Below, piece by piece: positions 23,107-47,843 of a DNA stretch of 47,843 nt. Both the position numbers and the translations under genes were made by a program. The notes beneath the pieces are model-generated. The model was not told the origin of the DNA, searched no databases, and was given only the letters and a program-made list of their open reading frames with translations. The DNA lies in contig CAZGRE010000006.1 in the NCBI GenBank assembly GCA_964528085.1, forward strand, positions 1 through 47,843, written 5' to 3'. Origin of the DNA: an uncultured Thermotogae bacterium (GTDB lineage: Bacteria > Bipolaricaulota > Bipolaricaulia > UBA7950 > UBA9294). How positions within the stretch are numbered: position 1 is the stretch's first letter; each line of letters starts with the position of its first letter.

Positions 23107-23871
23107 CTACCCCTTCGCCGAAGCACCCGCCCGGACGATCGCAGCGAATTTTGCAGGGTCGAGCGAGGCGCCGCCGACGAGGACGCCATCGATATCCTCC
23201 TTATCGAGGATGGCCGTGGCGTTATCCGGGTTCACGCTCCCCCCGTAGAGGATGCGGGTCGAGGAGGCGGCATCCTCGCCGAGCCGCGAACCGATCCATC
23301 CCCGGATCGTCTCCGCCATCTCATCCGCCATCTCCGGTGTCGCCGTCCTCCCAGTTCCGATCGCCCAGACGGGCTCGTAGGCGATCACGATCCGATCCGG
23401 ATCGATAGAGTCGAGCGCCGCCTCCAGCTGGCCCCCGACCACCCTCTCCGAATCACCTTGAGACCTCTCTTCCGCGGTCTCTCCGACGCATAGGATCGCT
23501 GAAAGCCCCGAATCGAGGGCGGACTTGAGCTTTAAGTGAACTATCCGATCGTCGTCGCCGAACAGGTGCCGCCGCTCGGAATGCCCGACGAGGACGTAGC
23601 GACATCCGCATGCGCGGATCAGCGCGGCTGAAATCGCACCGGTGTACGCCCCTCTTTCTTCGAAATAAAGGTCCTGAGCCCCGAGACCGATCCCCGACCC
23701 TGAAAGGATCCTCCCTGCCCGATCGAGGCTCGTGTACGGGGGGAAGAGGGCGACTTCGATGCCTCTCACCCCATCGACCGCAGGGAGAAACTCGTTCAGG
23801 AACGCCTCGGTCTCGGCAGGCGTCTTATTCATCTTCCAGTTTCCCGCGATCAGGATCCGCCGTGTCATCAT
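23107..23871 (-). CDS. tpiA: triosephosphate isomerase
   Basis: 254 aa with AGNWKMN...YEPVWAIGTG...GGSV, classic TIM motifs. Confidence 0.93.
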   Translation of the reverse strand: MMTRRILIAGNWKMNKTPAETEAFLNEFLPAVDGVRGIEVALFPPYTSLDRAGRILSGSGIGLGAQDLYFEERGAYTGAISAALIRACGCRYVLVGHSERRHLFGDDDRIVHLKLKSALDSGLSAILCVGETAEERSQGDSERVVGGQLEAALDSIDPDRIVIAYEPVWAIGTGRTATPEMADEMAETIRGWIGSRLGEDAASSTRILYGGSVNPDNATAILDKEDIDGVLVGGASLDPAKFAAIVRAGASAKG

Positions 23872-23917
23872 CCCCCTCTCAATCGAGTATAACGATCCAC
23901 CCCTTTCATTTACAGAA

Positions 23918-23946
23918 TTGACAATCTAGGGAGCGCTTCCTACCAT
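23918..23946 (+). promoter_or_regulatory. candidate sigma70-type promoter for the SPFH gene (TTGACA-17-TACCAT)
   Basis: TTGACA at 23918-23923, a 17-nt spacer, then TACCAT at 23941-23946. An AAGGAGG RBS at 23969-23975 and ATG at 23985 follow. Confidence 0.35.
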
Positions 23947-23984
23947 CTCCTCGGTTTTTAAGGAATCCAAGGAGGTAAGAACCG

Positions 23985-24734
23985 ATGTATACGACAATCG
24001 GAGCGATCATCGCATTGGTCGTGCTTTTCCTGCTGAACGCAATAAAGATCGTGCGCGAGTACGAACGCGGTGTGATATTCCGGCTCGGTAGGCTCGTAGG
24101 GGCGAAGGGGCCGGGGATCTTCCTGATCATCCCGCTCGTCGACAAGATGGTGAAGATCAGCCTCCGGGTCGTGACCCTCGACGTCCCGCCGCAGGAAGTG
24201 ATAACCAAGGACAACGTCTCGGCGCTGGTGAACGCTGTTTTGTTCTTCCGCGTCGTCGATCCGTGCGCCGCGGTCGTAGAGGTGCAGAACTTCATCGAAG
24301 CGACGCGGCAGATCGCGATGACAACTTTGCGGAGCGTCCTCGGCGGGGTGGAGCTCGACCAGGTCCTCGCCGAGCGGGAGAAGATCAACCTGAAACTACA
24401 GGAGATCATCGACGAGCAGACCGATCCGTGGGGGATCAAGGTGAAGACGGTCGAGATAAAGGACGTGAAGATCCCGCAGGAGATGCAGCGGGCGATCGCG
24501 CGTCAGGCCGAGGCAGAAAGGGAGCGGCGGGCGAAGATCATCAACGCCCAGGGCGAGCTCCAGGCGGCGACTAAACTCTCCGAGGCCGCAGCGATAATCC
24601 AGAAGAACCCGGCCGCGCTCCAGCTCCGCTACCTTCAGAGCCTCGTCGACATCTCGGCGGAGAACGCATCGACGATCGTCTTCCCGATCCCGATCGACCT
24701 GTTTAACTTCTTCAAGAAGGGGCAGGACTCCTAG
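23985..24734 (+). CDS. SPFH/band-7 domain protein (stomatin/slipin-like)
   Basis: N-terminal TM, an SPFH domain ([16 protein letters not shown]...), and a C-terminal coiled coil with [19 protein letters not shown]. Confidence 0.88.
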
Positions 24735-38108: not shown

Positions 38109-38136
38109 TCCACGTCTCCTCGTCGCCGAATCCTTG

Positions 38137-38209
38137 CAGGCCCGGGAGGACTTGAACCCCCAGCCTTCCGATTTGGAGTCGGACGCTCTGCCAGTTGAGC
38201 TACGGGCCT
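38137..38209 (-). tRNA. tRNA-Trp (anticodon CCA)
   Basis: Reverse complement reads AGGCCCGTAGCTCAACTGGCAGAGCGTCCGACTCCAAATCGGAAGGCTGGGGGTTCAAGTCCTCCCGGGCCT. Anticodon stem tccga/tcgga and loop cuCCAaa. Canonical location between rpmG and secE. Confidence 0.9.
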
Positions 38210-38232
38210 ATTCTCACCCAGCCGTCCTCCGG

Positions 38233-38397
38233 CTAGACCTCCTTGTGCAGCGTGTGCTTCCGGTCCCACTTGCAATACTTGCGGAGCGCGAGCTTGTCGC
38301 GCGTGTTGTTCTTGTTCCGCTTCGTGTGGTAGTTGCGCCGGCCGCACTCGCTACATGCCAGTGTAACGTGAATGACCGCTTCGCCCTTCTTCGCCAT
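38233..38397 (-). CDS. rpmG: 50S ribosomal protein L33
   Basis: Not in the supplied ORF track (it is under 60 aa). Manual translation of the minus strand gives [54 protein letters not shown] (54 aa), with the L33 Cys4 zinc-ribbon pattern. Confidence 0.88.
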
Positions 38398-38409
38398 TTA
38401 CTCCATCCC

Positions 38410-39609
38410 TTATTCGAGGATCTTGGTGACCACGCCGGAGGCGATCGTCTTCCCGCCCTCGCGGACGGCGAACCTGAGCCCTTCGTCCATCGCCACGGGG
38501 TGGATCAGCTCGCCGAAGATCTTCACGTGATCGCCGGGCATCACCATCTCGACGCCCTCCGGCAGGAGGACGGTCCCGGTGATGTCGGTCGTCCGGAAGA
38601 AGAACTGCGGCCTGTACCCGGAGAAGAACGGCTTATGACGTCCGCCTTCGTCCTTGGTCAGGACGTAGACCTCACCCTCGAATTTCCGATGCGGGGTGAT
38701 CGTCCCTGGAGCAGCGACGACCTGGCCACGCTCCACCTCGTCCTTGTCGATTCCGCGGAGGAGGATCCCGACGTTGTCGCCGGCGATCGCATAATCGAGC
38801 GTCTTGTTGAACATCTCGAGGCTTGTGGCGACCGTCTTCTGGATCTCATCGTGTACACCGACGATCTCGACCTCCATCCCGGGGGTGATCTTCCCGCGCT
38901 CGACGCGGCCGGTGACGACCGTACCCCGCCCCTTGATCGAGAAGATGTCCTCGATCGGCATCAGGAACGGCTTGTCCTCCTCACGGTCCGGGAGCGGGAT
39001 GTACTCGTCGACCGCCTTCATCAGCTCGACGATGCACTCCGTATCCGGGTGGTTCGGCTCGTCCCCGTGCTCCATCGCCTTCAGCGCCGAGCCGCGGATG
39101 ATCGGGACCTCGTCCCCGGGGAACTCGTATTCGGAGAGGAGCTCGCGGATCTCCATCTCGATCAGATCGATCAGCTCCGGGTCGTCGACCATGTCGACCT
39201 TGTTCAGGAAGACGACGATCGCCGGAACGTTCACCTGCCGCGCAAGGAGGACGTGCTCGCGCGTCTGCGGCATCGGCCCGTCGTCGGCGGCGACCACGAG
39301 GATCGCCCCGTCCATCTGCGCGGCTCCGGTGATCATGTTCTTGATGTAGTCCGCATGTCCCGGACAATCGATATGGGCGTAGTGGCGGTTCTCGGTCTCG
39401 TACTCGACGTGCCGGACGTTGATTGTGATCCCGCGCGCCTTCTCCTCCGGCGCGTTGTCGATGTCCTCGAATGCCAACGCCCGCGCCTTACCCTGGGTGG
39501 CGAGGACCTTGGTGATCGCCGAGGTCAACGTTGTCTTCCCATGGTCGATATGCCCGATCGTCCCAATGTTCAGATGGGGCTTATCCCTCACAAACGCTTC
39601 CTTCGCCAT
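38410..39609 (-). CDS. tuf: elongation factor Tu
   Basis: 399 aa with [17 protein letters not shown] and NKVD G-motifs and the full EF-Tu domain II/III. Confidence 0.97.
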
Positions 39610-39686
39610 CGCTTAAACCTCCTTAGCGCCTGTTGTAAGATCCATCCCTTTCGCTTAAATAGGAAGGACTATCTCTCGCAAGCATG

Positions 39687-39759
39687 AGCCCGCGGACGGA
39701 GTCGAACCGACGACCTCCCCCTTACCAAGGGGGTGCTCTACCACCTGAGCTACACGGGC
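39687..39759 (-). tRNA. tRNA-Thr (anticodon GGT)
   Basis: Reverse complement reads GCCCGTGTAGCTCAGGTGGTAGAGCACCCCTTGGTAAGGGGGAGGTCGTCGGTTCGACTCCGTCCGCGGGCT. Acceptor stem GCCCGTG/CGCGGGC and anticodon loop cuGGUaa. Confidence 0.85.
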
Positions 39760-39810
39760 GCTTCGAACTCCGTAGAACGGAGTTTAACCGAAAGCTTCGA
39801 TCCTTCCAAC

Positions 39811-39893
39811 TGGAGGGGGAGGGATTCGAACCCCCGAAGGCGTCCGCCAACGGATTTACAGTCCGCCCCGTTTGGCCACTTCGGTACCCCTCC
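39811..39893 (-). tRNA. tRNA-Tyr (anticodon GTA), long variable arm
   Basis: Reverse complement reads GGAGGGGTACCGAAGTGGCCAAACGGGGCGGACTGTAAATCCGTTGGCGGACGCCTTCGGGGGTTCGAATCCCTCCCCCTCCA. Anticodon loop cuGUAaa, with an extended variable arm typical of tRNA-Tyr. Confidence 0.88.
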
Positions 39894-39908
39894 AACCGTG
39901 ATCGGAAG

Positions 39909-39981
39909 AGCCAGCGGCCAGAGTCGAACTGGCAACCTACTGATTACAAATCAGTTGCTCTGCCGATTGAGCTACGCTGGC
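39909..39981 (-). tRNA. tRNA-Thr (anticodon TGT)
   Basis: Reverse complement reads GCCAGCGTAGCTCAATCGGCAGAGCAACTGATTTGTAATCAGTAGGTTGCCAGTTCGACTCTGGCCGCTGGCT. Anticodon stem actga/tcagt and loop uuUGUaa. Confidence 0.88.
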
Positions 39982-45296: not shown

Positions 45297-45610
45297 GCGA
45301 GCTTCCCGCCGTGACGGTAGTCGCGCGTCTCGTTGTAGCGGACCTTGGCGGCTATCGCCCGCTCGAGGTCGAACCCCATCCCTCCGGCGAGATCGAGGAT
45401 GCGGATGACCGCATCGGCGAGCTCCTCCTCCAGGCGGGTAAACCCCGGGATCTTTCGGCTCTCAGGGTTCCCGATCCGGTATGCCTCCATCCCCTCGGCG
45501 ATCTCGGTGACGATCAGCATCAACGCCTCACCGGTCGGGCGCGGCCGGTCCCACCATCCGTGCTCGACTGCGATCCGATGGACCTCTTCCTGCAGTTCCC
45601 CGATCCTCAT
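45293..45610 (-). CDS. MazG-like nucleotide pyrophosphohydrolase (small all-alpha NTP-PPase)
   Basis: 105 aa with LIVTEIAEGMEAYR...LEEELADAVIRILDLA, the EExxE/D MazG-type motif pattern. Confidence 0.75.
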   Translation of the reverse strand: MRIGELQEEVHRIAVEHGWWDRPRPTGEALMLIVTEIAEGMEAYRIGNPESRKIPGFTRLEEELADAVIRILDLAGGMGFDLERAIAAKVRYNETRDYRHGGKLA

Positions 45611-45689
45611 CGGTCTCCTTTCGAATCAGCCTTGCCCATCGCCTCCCCCTGCGCTAGTCTCTAACAGACAAGACCGCTAGGAGGCTATC

Positions 45690-46571
45690 ATGAAAATGCG
45701 AAATACGATCATCATTCTCCTCGCCGTCGGGCTGCTCGCCGGCTGTTCGACCGGGGCCCTCGGGCTGAAGGTCGGGATCGTGACCGACATCCACGCCCAT
45801 GATACCGACTCGCCGGGCGAGGGGAAAATCATGACGGACTACCCGGAGCGGCTGGGGGCGTTCGTCGACGCGATGAACACCTGGCCGGCCGATCTGGTCA
45901 TCGAGCTCGGCGACTTCGTGAACGGGAACTTCGTCTTCGGCCCGCCGCCCGGGGACCCGGCGCGGATCGTCGAGATCCTCGACGAGGCAGAAGCGATCTA
46001 CGCGATGCTCGACGCGCCCCGCTACTACGTCCTCGGGAACCACGATGTCTACGACCTCTCCAAGGAGGAGTTCGTCGAGCATACAGGCTGCTCGTTCACC
46101 TACGGGAGCTTCGACGCCGACGGGTATCACTTCGTCATCCTCGACGCCCAGTACAACAGAGACGGGGAGGACCTCGACCACGTCGGCTGGGTGGTGCAGG
46201 GGTACATCCCGGAAGTACAGCTCGAGTGGCTGAAGGGCGACCTGGCGGAGACGGACAAGCCGACAATCGTCTGCGTCCATCAGCGCCTCGACGTCGACGT
46301 CGACTTCCTCTCCGGGAACGCCCCTGAGATCCGAAACAACAAGGACGTGCAGAGGATCCTCGAGGAATCCGGGGTCGTGATCGCCGTATTCCAGGGGCAC
46401 GACCACGAGAACGCCTACACGCTGATAAACGGGATCCACTACATCGAGTTCGACCAGCTCGTCAACGAGGAAAGCGAGCCGTCGTGGGCGTACGTCACCC
46501 TCGACCCGGATGCGCGGACGATAACGATCGTCGGCGAGGGTGAGCAGGAGGACTGGCACCTGAAATACTGA
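45690..46571 (+). CDS. calcineurin-like metallophosphoesterase lipoprotein
   Basis: Signal peptide with lipobox LLAGCS. Phosphoesterase motifs DIHAHD, GDFVNGN, GNHD, GHDHEN. Confidence 0.82.
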   Translation: MKMRNTIIILLAVGLLAGCSTGALGLKVGIVTDIHAHDTDSPGEGKIMTDYPERLGAFVDAMNTWPADLVIELGDFVNGNFVFGPPPGDPARIVEILDEAEAIYAMLDAPRYYVLGNHDVYDLSKEEFVEHTGCSFTYGSFDADGYHFVILDAQYNRDGEDLDHVGWVVQGYIPEVQLEWLKGDLAETDKPTIVCVHQRLDVDVDFLSGNAPEIRNNKDVQRILEESGVVIAVFQGHDHENAYTLINGIHYIEFDQLVNEESEPSWAYVTLDPDARTITIVGEGEQEDWHLKY

Positions 46572-46608
46572 TTTGATTTCCATCCCGAAACAACATATAA
46601 GAATCATC

Positions 46609-47706
46609 ATGAAGCCACGAATAGTAGGAAGCCTCGTCGCACTTGTCGTTCTTCTATTACTGCTATTTGGGTGTGGCAAAAAGGTGGGAGACTTCTCGAT
46701 ATTTGTATCTTCAGGAGGGCTATTTGTTGATCAAAATAGAAGTTCCTCTGTCTCCATCGGTGTCACTCGCTCCGAGGGATTCACAAAGGAGATAACCTTT
46801 TCACTAACTGGCGCACCAGAGGGAGTCAAAGCTAACTTCACTCCTAACCCTTTAGTTGGAGACACCTGTGTACTTACTTTAACAGCGGCGAAAAGTGCGC
46901 CTGTTGGGACTTATCCCGTCAACATAGTAGGCAGTAGTGGTAGCTTGAGATCCACCATTAGCCTGAAATTGACGATAGTCCTCGGCACCAACTCAGACAC
47001 GGGAGTAGAATATGTATTTCGAGTCTCTGGCGCAGATAAAATGGATCAGGACCAACTAGATCCAACAATGGACGAAATCATTGCCACCATAAAACAACGC
47101 ATAAGCAGTTACGGAATTACTGATGTGGAACTGAAAACTATGGGAACTGGTCAAATCGAAGTAAAGGTTCTTGGAGAACTAGACGACGCAGAGAGGCAGC
47201 GAATTAGACGCCTCTTAGGAACTACAGGGCAGATAGAATTCCTAAGGGTGGTTAAGAGAGGCGAAAGCCCTTACGACGCTAACGTTATTCCAACATCGCT
47301 CACACAAGAAGTCCTGTATGATCGAGATGGAATCCCTTATGTGCTGGAATCTCAACCATTGTTGACAAGCAGTCACATATCTAACGCCGCCGTGGTTCAG
47401 TTAACTGGGGGAGCACCCGCCATCAGACTGGCTTTCACTAAAGATGGTGCAATGCTCTTTTCCAAACTGGTGGACGAATTCCTCGTAAACGACTGTATAG
47501 CGATAGTTATAGATAATGTAGTGTACTCAGTTCGATGCATAACTCAATCCCTTAAGGCCGCTGCGAAAGCAGGTTGGGAAAACGTACAAAGCTGTACTGT
47601 CATAAGTAATGGATTCAATGCGGATGATGCTAAACTGCTGGCCTTGATAATTCGCAATGGAGCATTTCCTGTACCAGTACTTATCGTTAGTGACATATCA
47701 TTCTAA
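46609..47706 (+). CDS. lipoprotein with N-terminal beta-sandwich domain and SecD-like periplasmic (P1 head/base) domain, no membrane domain; encoded in a low-GC island
   Basis: ATG 46609 (the ORF track begins at in-frame TTG 46573). Lipobox LLLFGC. Residues about 150-366 resemble the SecD P1 region (ISSYGITDVELKTMGTGQIEVKVLGELDDAERQRIRRLLGTTGQIEFLRV; CIAIVIDNVVYSVRCITQSL; DAKLLALIIRNGAFPVPV). The ORF ends before any SecD TM2-6. Codon usage and GC (about 40%) differ sharply from the rest of the window. Confidence 0.6.
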   Translation: MKPRIVGSLVALVVLLLLLFGCGKKVGDFSIFVSSGGLFVDQNRSSSVSIGVTRSEGFTKEITFSLTGAPEGVKANFTPNPLVGDTCVLTLTAAKSAPVGTYPVNIVGSSGSLRSTISLKLTIVLGTNSDTGVEYVFRVSGADKMDQDQLDPTMDEIIATIKQRISSYGITDVELKTMGTGQIEVKVLGELDDAERQRIRRLLGTTGQIEFLRVVKRGESPYDANVIPTSLTQEVLYDRDGIPYVLESQPLLTSSHISNAAVVQLTGGAPAIRLAFTKDGAMLFSKLVDEFLVNDCIAIVIDNVVYSVRCITQSLKAAAKAGWENVQSCTVISNGFNADDAKLLALIIRNGAFPVPVLIVSDISF

Positions 47707-47765
47707 AAATTGATAGAATAGCGTTAAGAGCTGACAGCAAAAGACACTACTCGAGGAGGCACAGG

Positions 47766-47843
47766 ATGATCGTCGATTTCTCCATATTCCCGATCGGGAA
47801 GGGGGTCTCCCTCAGCCGGTACGTCGCCGAGGCGTACAGGATA
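47766..47843 (+). CDS. MTH1187/YkoF (DUF77) family protein, 5' partial at window edge
   Basis: GAGGAGG RBS at 47751-47757 and ATG 47766. MIVDFSIFPIGKGVSLSRYVAEAYRI matches the conserved N-terminus of the UPF0045/YkoF thiamin-binding-like family. Confidence 0.6.
   Translation, partial: MIVDFSIFPIGKGVSLSRYVAEAYRI

Follow-up and report, generated by a model that had tools for sequence, protein, structure and literature searches.

A low-GC, single-gene islet encoding a predicted SecD P1 lipoprotein is present or absent at one site in Bipolaricaulota-like genomes

How does the periplasmic part of SecD, a component of a housekeeping secretion machine, come to stand alone in a gene whose composition departs so far from that of its neighbors? 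The question is raised by a short islet near the end of contig CAZGRE010000006.1 (assembly GCA_964528085.1), from an uncultured Thermotogae bacterium placed by GTDB in the Bipolaricaulota; the whole stretch analyzed, 47,843 nucleotides (nt) long, is called the window here. By direct count, the islet, which lies between genes for a metallophosphoesterase and a YkoF-like protein, has a guanine-plus-cytosine (GC) content of 0.446, relative to 0.636 over positions 1-46571. Among all 1169-nt segments of the window (mean GC 0.634, standard deviation 0.027), the minimum of 0.443 is reached at a start of 46561, approximately 7 standard deviations below the mean. Both edges are sharp and resolved to about 20 nt, with the GC content of 40-nt segments falling from 0.62 (46520-46559) to 0.33 (46560-46599) on the left and rising from 0.33 (47700-47739) to 0.65 (47780-47819) on the right. 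A single gene occupies the islet. Its ATG at 46609 yields MKPRIVGSLVALVVLLLLLFGC and its stop codon lies at 47704-47706; a TTG at 46573, the start of the mechanically called open reading frame (ORF), was dropped in favor of this plausible ATG. GC contents at codon positions 1, 2 and 3 are 0.54, 0.42 and 0.40, versus 0.65, 0.34 and 0.90 in the metallophosphoesterase gene, so that the GC content at third codon positions (GC3) is 0.404 beside 0.85-0.90 in neighboring genes. The codon adaptation index (CAI) is 0.255, relative to 0.684 +/- 0.061 for 38 reference genes of the window (z = -7), and codons rare in the window make up 35% of the gene, whereas the reference genes average 5.8% and reach 11% at most. 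An earlier, sequence-only reading of this DNA had described a sharply bounded, foreign-looking islet with one ORF and AT-rich codon usage unlike that of the other genes, all of which these measurements bear out; its coordinates were also right, but the drop it gave, from 67% to 40%, was overstated, the measured values being approximately 64% and 45%. We regard the identity and evolution of this SecD-head lipoprotein cassette, as reconstructed here, as very probably correct, and the fuller explanation, which sees in the islet an accessory cassette of the Bipolaricaulota with a single gene whose product acts as a passive binder on the export side, as probable on balance.

The islet protein combines a lipoprotein signal, an immunoglobulin-like (Ig-like) domain and the P1 domain of SecD. 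Its N-terminus, MKPRIVGSLVALVVLLLLLFG followed by Cys22, meets the lipobox rule (PROSITE PS00013/PS51257: an n-region with K/R, a hydrophobic h-region, and [LVI..][..][AGS]-C with the cysteine at positions 15-35), as judged by eye against the rule rather than with a signal-peptide predictor. The lipobox and its cysteine are invariant in proteins P0001-P0004, the same motif recurs in P0018 and at locus L022, and across orthologues it reads LFGC, LSGC or FSC. This cleavable signal peptide and the Ig-like domain of approximately 100 residues that follows it occupy the position of the first transmembrane (TM) segment of SecD. In an AlphaFold2 (AF2) model, the Ig-like domain matches S-layer SbsC/Sap and Rib domains by fold (E ~1e-5), and homologues of the module are very common as tandem repeats, with 4-35 copies in giant uncharacterized envelope proteins of 350-3900 amino acids, although no Pfam match to the module was found, even in those tandem-bearing proteins. 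The remainder of the protein is P1. Specifically, the head is recognized by Pfam SecDF_P1_head (PF22599; E 1.7e-14, residues 234-355, 54.1 bits against a cut-off of 27), while the base matches SecD_1st (PF21760; E 1.2e-5, residues 154-214) at 25.1 bits, below the cut-off of 27; P0001 carries PF21760 in a precomputed domain table, and the base fold is visible in the AF2 model. Among solved structures, the closest is the isolated P1 domain of Thermus thermophilus SecDF (3AQO, E 2.7e-14, query residues 146-359 against chain positions 14-222 of 229). The model itself, built from an alignment of 48 sequences with a mean predicted local distance difference test (pLDDT) score of 88, replaced one from a four-orthologue alignment that had reached only pLDDT 54, and its top Foldseek matches in the PDB were 5YHF and 3AQO (E ~1e-13), with TM-scores of 0.74-0.79 on 3AQO chains. 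The architecture proposed in the sequence-only reading, a lipoprotein signal peptide, an N-terminal beta-sandwich and the SecD P1 base and head ending before TM2, was thereby confirmed, and the comparison with SecD/SecDF structures that it had suggested did recover P1 similarity.

Homology to SecD stops at the last P1 strand, where residue 365, the end of the protein, aligns to SecD residue ~281. No match to PF02355, which covers TM2-6, was found in the protein, and tblastn with full SecD gave nothing past P1 in any frame. Against the NCBIfam secD profile (TIGR01129), the lipoprotein covers only positions 26-233 and scores 83.5 bits, relative to a cut-off of 244.4, whereas the genuine SecD P0158 scores 398 bits. 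Thus, compared with the SecD/SecDF P1 domains of T. thermophilus (3AQO, 3AQP, 5YHF), the lipoprotein shares the complete base-and-head fold and the conserved motifs on either side of the head (LLGxTGxIEF and LALIIRxGxFPxP), but has no TM1, TM2-6, SecF partner or proton pathway, and carries a lipoprotein signal and an Ig-like domain instead. Its gene also stands next to yajC or secF in none of the contexts recovered, while the genuine secD of relatives follows yajC. Hence, the protein descends from SecD P1 yet falls outside SecD by its TM segments, its TIGR01129 score and its gene context. Literature searches found no description of a free-standing SecD P1 lipoprotein, in agreement with the earlier claim that none had been described, and public database records list the protein as "hypothetical" or list fragments mislabeled as "SecD".

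The P1 domain points to an origin inside the phylum. In profile searches with P1, orthologues ranked first, followed at 35-38% identity (E 1e-62 to 1e-98) by proteins among which are genuine TM-bearing SecDs, one of them named Candidatus Bipolaricaulota, while the SecDs of other groups reached 25-30% (E ~1e-27). Further, all orthologues of the lipoprotein, like SecDs P0156-P0163, carry a 10-residue insertion with the consensus KxAAxxGWxxVQ, and none of 16 other SecDs has it. A neighbor-joining tree recovers the lipoproteins as a single group of two subtypes, sister to the clade of insertion-bearing SecDs. One metagenome-assembled genome (MAG), GCA_001684015.1, carries both genes on separate contigs: yajC-secD at L103 (LZCG01000299) and the lipoprotein gene at L056 (LZCG01000341). 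The lipoprotein is therefore an additional paralogue that does not stand in for SecD. In the same MAG, the P1-coding part of the genuine secD has a GC3 of 0.75, relative to 0.50 for the lipoprotein gene, so AT-richness is not inherent to encoding a P1 domain. The genuine Bipolaricaulota SecDs (MEA1871602.1, which is P0157, together with P0158 and P0213) hold the closest P1 domains, at the 35-38% identity given above and with the shared insertion, but differ in being full-length membrane proteins encoded next to yajC with a GC3 of 0.75-0.88, relative to 0.34-0.50 for the lipoprotein genes. By sequence comparison, the lipoprotein gene is a phylum-internal paralogue of Bipolaricaulota SecD.

The distribution of the gene is that of a unit present or absent at one site. 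Among 5.8 billion proteins, close relatives form only three clusters, at 60-65% identity (the nearest allele being 65% identical), and an exhaustive search of representatives added a second subtype, P0018, at about 45%; all homologues above 40% identity in that collection lie at the same site, in Bipolaricaulota-like contigs. In every context recovered without bias, the gene order is POR subunits, a MazG-like gene on the other strand, metallophosphoesterase, P1 lipoprotein and YkoF/Thiamine_BP. A scan of metagenomes with the metallophosphoesterase as query returned 80 loci, approximately 60 of which were informative for the site between it and ykoF. Three states were seen. The site may be empty, with a spacer of 1-27 nt and a ykoF Shine-Dalgarno sequence that often overlaps the stop codon; it may hold the P1 gene (the window, L001, L002, L007, L011, L056, L022 and L031); or it may hold a second, normal-GC metallophosphoesterase copy in tandem (approximately 17 loci). 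The last of these, with ~0.95 kb between the flanks, were considered as a third kind of cassette and set aside, their extra DNA being the tandem paralogue of normal GC. These tandem loci (L024-L028, L033, L040, L046, L054, L058-L068, L079 and L081) illustrate that the junction varies in more than one way.

In a tree of the flanking protein, filled and empty sites are neighbors in four places: the window and L018, L001 and L021, L031 and L029, and L011 plus L056 and L030 plus L032. The site is empty in L018, which is the closest relative of the window (81% identity in the metallophosphoesterase). Lateral exchange between lineages is supported, most strongly by L011 and L031, whose P1 proteins are 87% identical while their metallophosphoesterases are 64% and their YkoF proteins 74% identical; elsewhere, P1 evolves faster than the flank, as for the window and L002 (65% for P1, 86% for the metallophosphoesterase). 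From about 20 nt before the metallophosphoesterase stop codon to the ykoF start codon, L031 follows L011, and outside this interval it follows its empty sister L029. Because these breakpoints fall at the islet edges, the exchanged unit coincides with the islet, and sequence relationships thus support a cassette that has moved between lineages as exactly this islet. Searches for direct or inverted repeats or att sites bracketing the islet found none, the single ORF leaves no integrase within it, and tRNA genes are distant; the likeliest route of exchange would be recombination through the conserved ends of both flanking genes.

Carriers keep the gene intact. In eight lineages, the ORF encodes 358-366 amino acids with start, lipobox, Ig-like domain and end retained, and the four window-type orthologues and the type-2 proteins share one layout of lipobox, Ig-like domain, P1 and C-terminal end. 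The pairwise ratio of nonsynonymous to synonymous substitution rates (dN/dS) is 0.23-0.35 at dS 0.36-1.3, relative to 0.06-0.29 for the neighbors. The lipoprotein gene is thus somewhat more relaxed than its neighbors but under clear purifying selection.

Its low GC content is likewise shared among carriers. In the eight carrier lineages, the P1 gene has a GC content of 0.42-0.49 and a GC3 of 0.34-0.50, beside flanking genes with a GC3 of 0.61-0.90. When third-position synonymous changes were polarized by parsimony, the per-site rate from strong to weak bases (S to W) equaled or exceeded the reverse (W to S) in 5 of 7 lineages, with an implied equilibrium GC3 of 0.2-0.57. For the metallophosphoesterase of the same lineages, the equilibrium was 0.8-0.9, except for 0.56-0.63 in L029 and L031, matching its observed composition. 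Given that, after a recent import alone, synonymous sites should drift toward the composition of the host, these patterns are suggestive of an AT-rich synonymous composition that is maintained in each host rather than of a fresh import mark. Such persistence could reflect selection for AT-ending or rare codons, repeated re-seeding from an unsampled AT-rich pool, or exemption of this gene from the force that keeps the rest of the genome GC-rich. The contrast in GC3 between cassette and flanks thus bears on whether the low GC of accessory genes is a donor signature or a maintained property.

The cassette also appears to bring its own expression signals. The spacer behind the metallophosphoesterase stop codon, approximately 37 nt long, is conserved; the window and L002 share TTGAyT-17-TATAAr-7-ATG, L011 and L056 have TTGACC-17-TACAGT-7-ATG, and in L001 and L007 the arrangement is shifted by 1 nt. 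A consensus promoter scanner did not call the upstream element, the sixth base of its -10 being G. No Shine-Dalgarno sequence precedes the P1 gene in any of the eight loci, while ykoF has GGAGG in window-type loci and GAAGG in type-2 loci. The simplest reading of these sequences is that the gene has its own promoter and a leaderless or near-leaderless mRNA. At the other end, a sigma70-like site in the last P1 codons may reinstate transcription of ykoF where the cassette has come between it and the gene upstream. No intrinsic terminator was found after the P1 gene, and an Rfam scan of 45500-47843 gave nothing near threshold, hence no TPP (thiamine pyrophosphate) riboswitch ahead of ykoF.

What might such a protein do? 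The gene very probably arose from the secD of the phylum, with the P1 base and head kept, TM1 replaced by a lipoprotein signal and an Ig-like domain, and TM2-6 lost, and the resulting cassette is dispensable, given the clean empty sites of sister lineages. In the mechanism we propose, the product would be exported by Sec and then attached to lipid at Cys22, so as to face the periplasm on a membrane of a toga-bearing diderm, with the Ig-like domain as its stalk. From there, the P1 base and head would bind emerging or unfolded exported polypeptides, serving either as a passive ratchet or holdase or as an accessory to SecYEG/SecDF; lacking the TM proton path, the protein would have no proton-driven power stroke. 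In SecDF, a flexible region on the periplasmic side interacts with an unfolded protein and moves in a manner coupled to TM proton flow (PMC5974789). For Bipolaricaulota, an S-layer and a toga-like outer membrane with large polar periplasmic spaces have been reported (PMC6092417; bioRxiv 10.1101/2025.11.21.689855). We put forward this function, a periplasmic and proton-independent binder of unfolded exported proteins, tentatively, as one possibility among others. Membrane-tethered proteins that work independently of ATP and of the proton motive force, and are thought to receive unfolded proteins leaving SecYEG, include the PrsA lipoprotein of Firmicutes and PpiD/YfgM of Escherichia coli; their parvulin, SurA-like and TPR folds are unrelated to P1, and no homology to them was detected in the searches made here. 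Extra SecD-derived copies are known in the form of full-length SecDF paralogues, such as the two SecDF forms of Streptomyces coelicolor (PMC4139356) and SecDF1/SecDF2 of Vibrio (PMC11470409), but these keep the whole 12-TM machine, unlike the lipoprotein, which keeps the periplasmic domain only.

In current SecDF models, what the P1 head does is linked to proton-driven TM movements, and a conserved stand-alone P1 under selection is, in that sense, a natural experiment on what the head can achieve alone. If P1 is indeed useful without the proton engine, its activity would be that of a passive extracytoplasmic ratchet or holdase, or that of a SecD mimic serving as a decoy. The lone P1 lipoprotein further offers a small soluble construct for binding and structural work, and it shows how part of a housekeeping machine has become an accessory gene, traded among lineages at a single fixed site. 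Its practical reach is limited, with the family seen in a handful of metagenomic Bipolaricaulota lineages.

Several points weigh against the cassette as reconstructed here and against the proposed binder. With respect to composition, the window branch has 15 W-to-S changes versus 4 S-to-W, which may mean that some amelioration is under way in a very GC-rich host, and the directional counts are small in general (3-18 events per class) and were obtained by parsimony at nearly saturated sites (dS 0.4-1.3). At L031 and L022, only a degenerate form of the promoter motif is seen. Repeated loss of an ancestral gene, rather than repeated gain, could account for most of the patchiness, and no donor was found, nor did viral contigs, phages or plasmids yield a reservoir. 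With respect to function, the assignment is read from domain homology alone; the conserved proline of the SecD "YSAP" motif is substituted in the lipoprotein (YSVR or CSVL); and the P1 base of SecDF pairs with P4 of SecF, so that a lone P1 may behave differently.

The main functional rival is a role in defense or exclusion, whereby the exposed lipoprotein would mimic the periplasmic face of SecD or mask an envelope receptor, and thus serve to decoy or block phages, toxins or competitors. Such a role would explain why the cassette is patchy, exchanged, AT-rich and self-promoted, in short "moron-like". The pattern among sister lineages, the lateral exchange, the promoter-like element of its own, an Ig-like domain of the type found in giant surface proteins and a P1 that evolves faster than the neighboring protein (65% relative to 86% identity between the window and L002) all fit. 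We nevertheless consider it unlikely, as it draws no direct support from our searches: PADLOC and PHROGs gave 0 matches, relatives were not found on viral contigs, the flanking core genes (such as those for POR, an EF-G-like protein and tRNAs) place the islet in neither a prophage nor a defense island, and dN/dS stays below 0.35, with no diversifying selection seen overall. The islet can be compared with one-gene islets of deviant composition, or "morons", and with exchangeable surface loci whose GC content stays low, O-antigen clusters among them. It resembles these in being self-contained, AT-rich and patchy, with a promoter-like element, at a fixed site between conserved genes; it differs in lying outside a prophage, in having no terminator, integrase or flanking repeats, and in not being found on viral contigs or plasmids. 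A broader formulation, in which P1 would be active without its membrane engine (as ratchet or holdase, or as SecD-mimicking decoy) and be carried by a self-promoted, leaderless, one-gene cassette that travels between Bipolaricaulota lineages and whose AT-rich, rare codons are selected, for example to throttle translation, strikes us as doubtful.

Alternatively, the gene might be a recent import from an unrelated low-GC organism, with its composition simply that of the donor. The sharp compositional break, the CAI and rare-codon values given above and the W-to-S excess on the window branch are what such an event would leave behind; the absence of a Shine-Dalgarno sequence before the gene, unlike before its neighbor, and the lack of the gene in L018, the closest locus by flanking genes, also point this way. 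However, the P1 domain carries the insertion specific to Bipolaricaulota SecDs and groups with those proteins, and its homologues above 40% identity among the 5.8 billion proteins occur only at this site in Bipolaricaulota-like contigs. The nearest allele is 65% identical, so that no recent donor is visible, and viral, phage and plasmid collections yielded nothing comparable: IMG/VR, searched with two profiles, INPHARED phages and PLSDB plasmids returned only ordinary SecD genes at 23-27% identity. We therefore judge a recent foreign import quite improbable. The sequence-only reading had offered a recently acquired foreign gene as one of its two options. Of "foreign", the deviating composition stands, while the Bipolaricaulota-type insertion and the sister relationship to those SecDs speak against it; of "recently acquired", movement between lineages is supported, but recency for this genome is not shown, with the nearest allele at 65% and the same site used in relatives.

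Its other option, a truncated remnant of a foreign secD, fared worse. A decaying secD fragment with no function of its own would be consistent with a protein that ends precisely where TM2 would start, with poor codon usage and with the existence of other truncated SecD-like singletons, one of which (P0121) has a full-length sibling. Yet the full-length gene with its lipobox and stop codon is conserved in eight lineages at the dN/dS of 0.23-0.35 reported above (at dS of up to 1.3), the N-terminus is a new architecture rather than a shortened SecD TM1, and no TM-coding remains were found in any frame, which makes decay very improbable. Further, the search of related genomes between the metallophosphoesterase and ykoF genes that the sequence-only reading had proposed did locate the gene there, while a full-length secD of similar GC content, which it had held would count against its view, occupied the site in 0 of the ~60 informative loci.

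Other proteins that end after a P1 domain were encountered in the searches. P0121, P0148 and P0159 were considered as further free-standing P1 proteins and not counted, being singletons, with a 636-amino-acid sibling of P0121 that is a full SecD. L017 (P0121) and P0232 represent a variant of the Bipolaricaulota-type SecD with a lipobox-like "SISGC" in TM1, a DUF5105-like domain before P1 and, at 636 amino acids, a full TM domain; a 461-residue version of this type ends right after P1, being either an allele that was truncated or the product of a chimeric contig. L098 (P0148, 332 amino acids) and L099 (P0159, 280 amino acids) are singleton ORFs, candidate genes at most, that end exactly after a Bipolaricaulota-type P1 in unrelated contexts of moderate GC content, and no TM region was found downstream of either in any frame.

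Finally, an assembly chimera, with the DNA of a low-GC organism joined into a GC-rich contig, would suit the metagenomic source and the sharp break at both gene boundaries, but its probability is negligible, and it is excluded as far as assemblies allow, because two Logan assemblies from separate sequencing runs match 46519-47818 at 100% and 99.9% identity across both junctions, and at least seven further independent assemblies (NCBI, ENA, JGI and Logan) hold the same order of metallophosphoesterase, P1 and ykoF. The two Logan contigs, L100 and L101 (window positions 46519-47818 and 46519-47795), begin at the identical base, which lies about 50 nt short of the islet, and run on for 50-80 nt past it; this pattern may mark a branch in the assembly graph, produced where strains carrying the islet and strains lacking it occur in one sample.

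Table 1. Features of the islet and its flanks, in window coordinates.
Feature	Position	Strand	Basis or remark
Low-GC islet, 44.6% GC	46572-47740		Composition; present/absent unit between metallophosphoesterase and ykoF-like genes
Coding sequence of the predicted 365-residue lipoprotein (signal peptide, Ig-like domain, SecD P1 base and head), stop included	46609-47706	+	ORF, Pfam, PDB match, AF2 model
Promoter-like TTGATT-17 nt-TATAAG, ending 7 nt before ATG	46573-46601	+	Cross-lineage alignment
Predicted signal peptide, lipobox LLFG-C; Cys22 codon 46672-46674	46609-46674	+	Read from sequence
Ig-like beta-sandwich, residues ~28-124	46690-46980	+	Fold and repeat homology
SecD P1 domain, base and head, residues 130-364; Pfam head 47308-47673, SecD_1st 47068-47250	46996-47700	+	Pfam, PDB, AF2
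Clade-specific insertion, residues ~316-330, KAAAKAGWENVQSCT (approximate limits)	47554-47598	+	Shared only with Bipolaricaulota-type SecD
Sigma70-like site GTGACA-18-TAGAAT, extended -10 TG	47690-47719	+	In last P1 codons, ~47 nt upstream of ykoF
AT-rich 3' spacer ending in ykoF Shine-Dalgarno GAGGAGG (47753-47759)	47707-47765	+	Sequence; overlaps sigma70-like site
Left flank: calcineurin-like metallophosphoesterase, predicted lipoprotein, GC3 0.895	45690-46571	+	Domain match, codon composition
Right flank: start of YkoF/MTH1187-family (Thiamine_BP) gene, cut by window end	47766-47843	+	Context in relatives, composition

Around the islet, the metallophosphoesterase has a lipobox of its own (LLAGC), from which it is predicted to be a lipoprotein. 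An antisense ORF of 341 codons (45654-46679, minus strand) covers the entire metallophosphoesterase gene and reaches into the islet; it was not taken as a gene, being a typical spurious ORF of GC-rich DNA. The sole other stretch of the window with a GC content below 55%, at 23800-24100, is the divergent intergenic region between tpiA (minus strand) and an SPFH/Band-7 gene (plus strand), and resembles an ordinary promoter region. Clustered tRNA genes (Trp, Thr, Tyr, Thr; 38136-39981, minus strand) lie upstream of the EF-G-like gene, and the EF-G-like/POR neighborhood is conserved in L011, which places the islet in a core, syntenic region.

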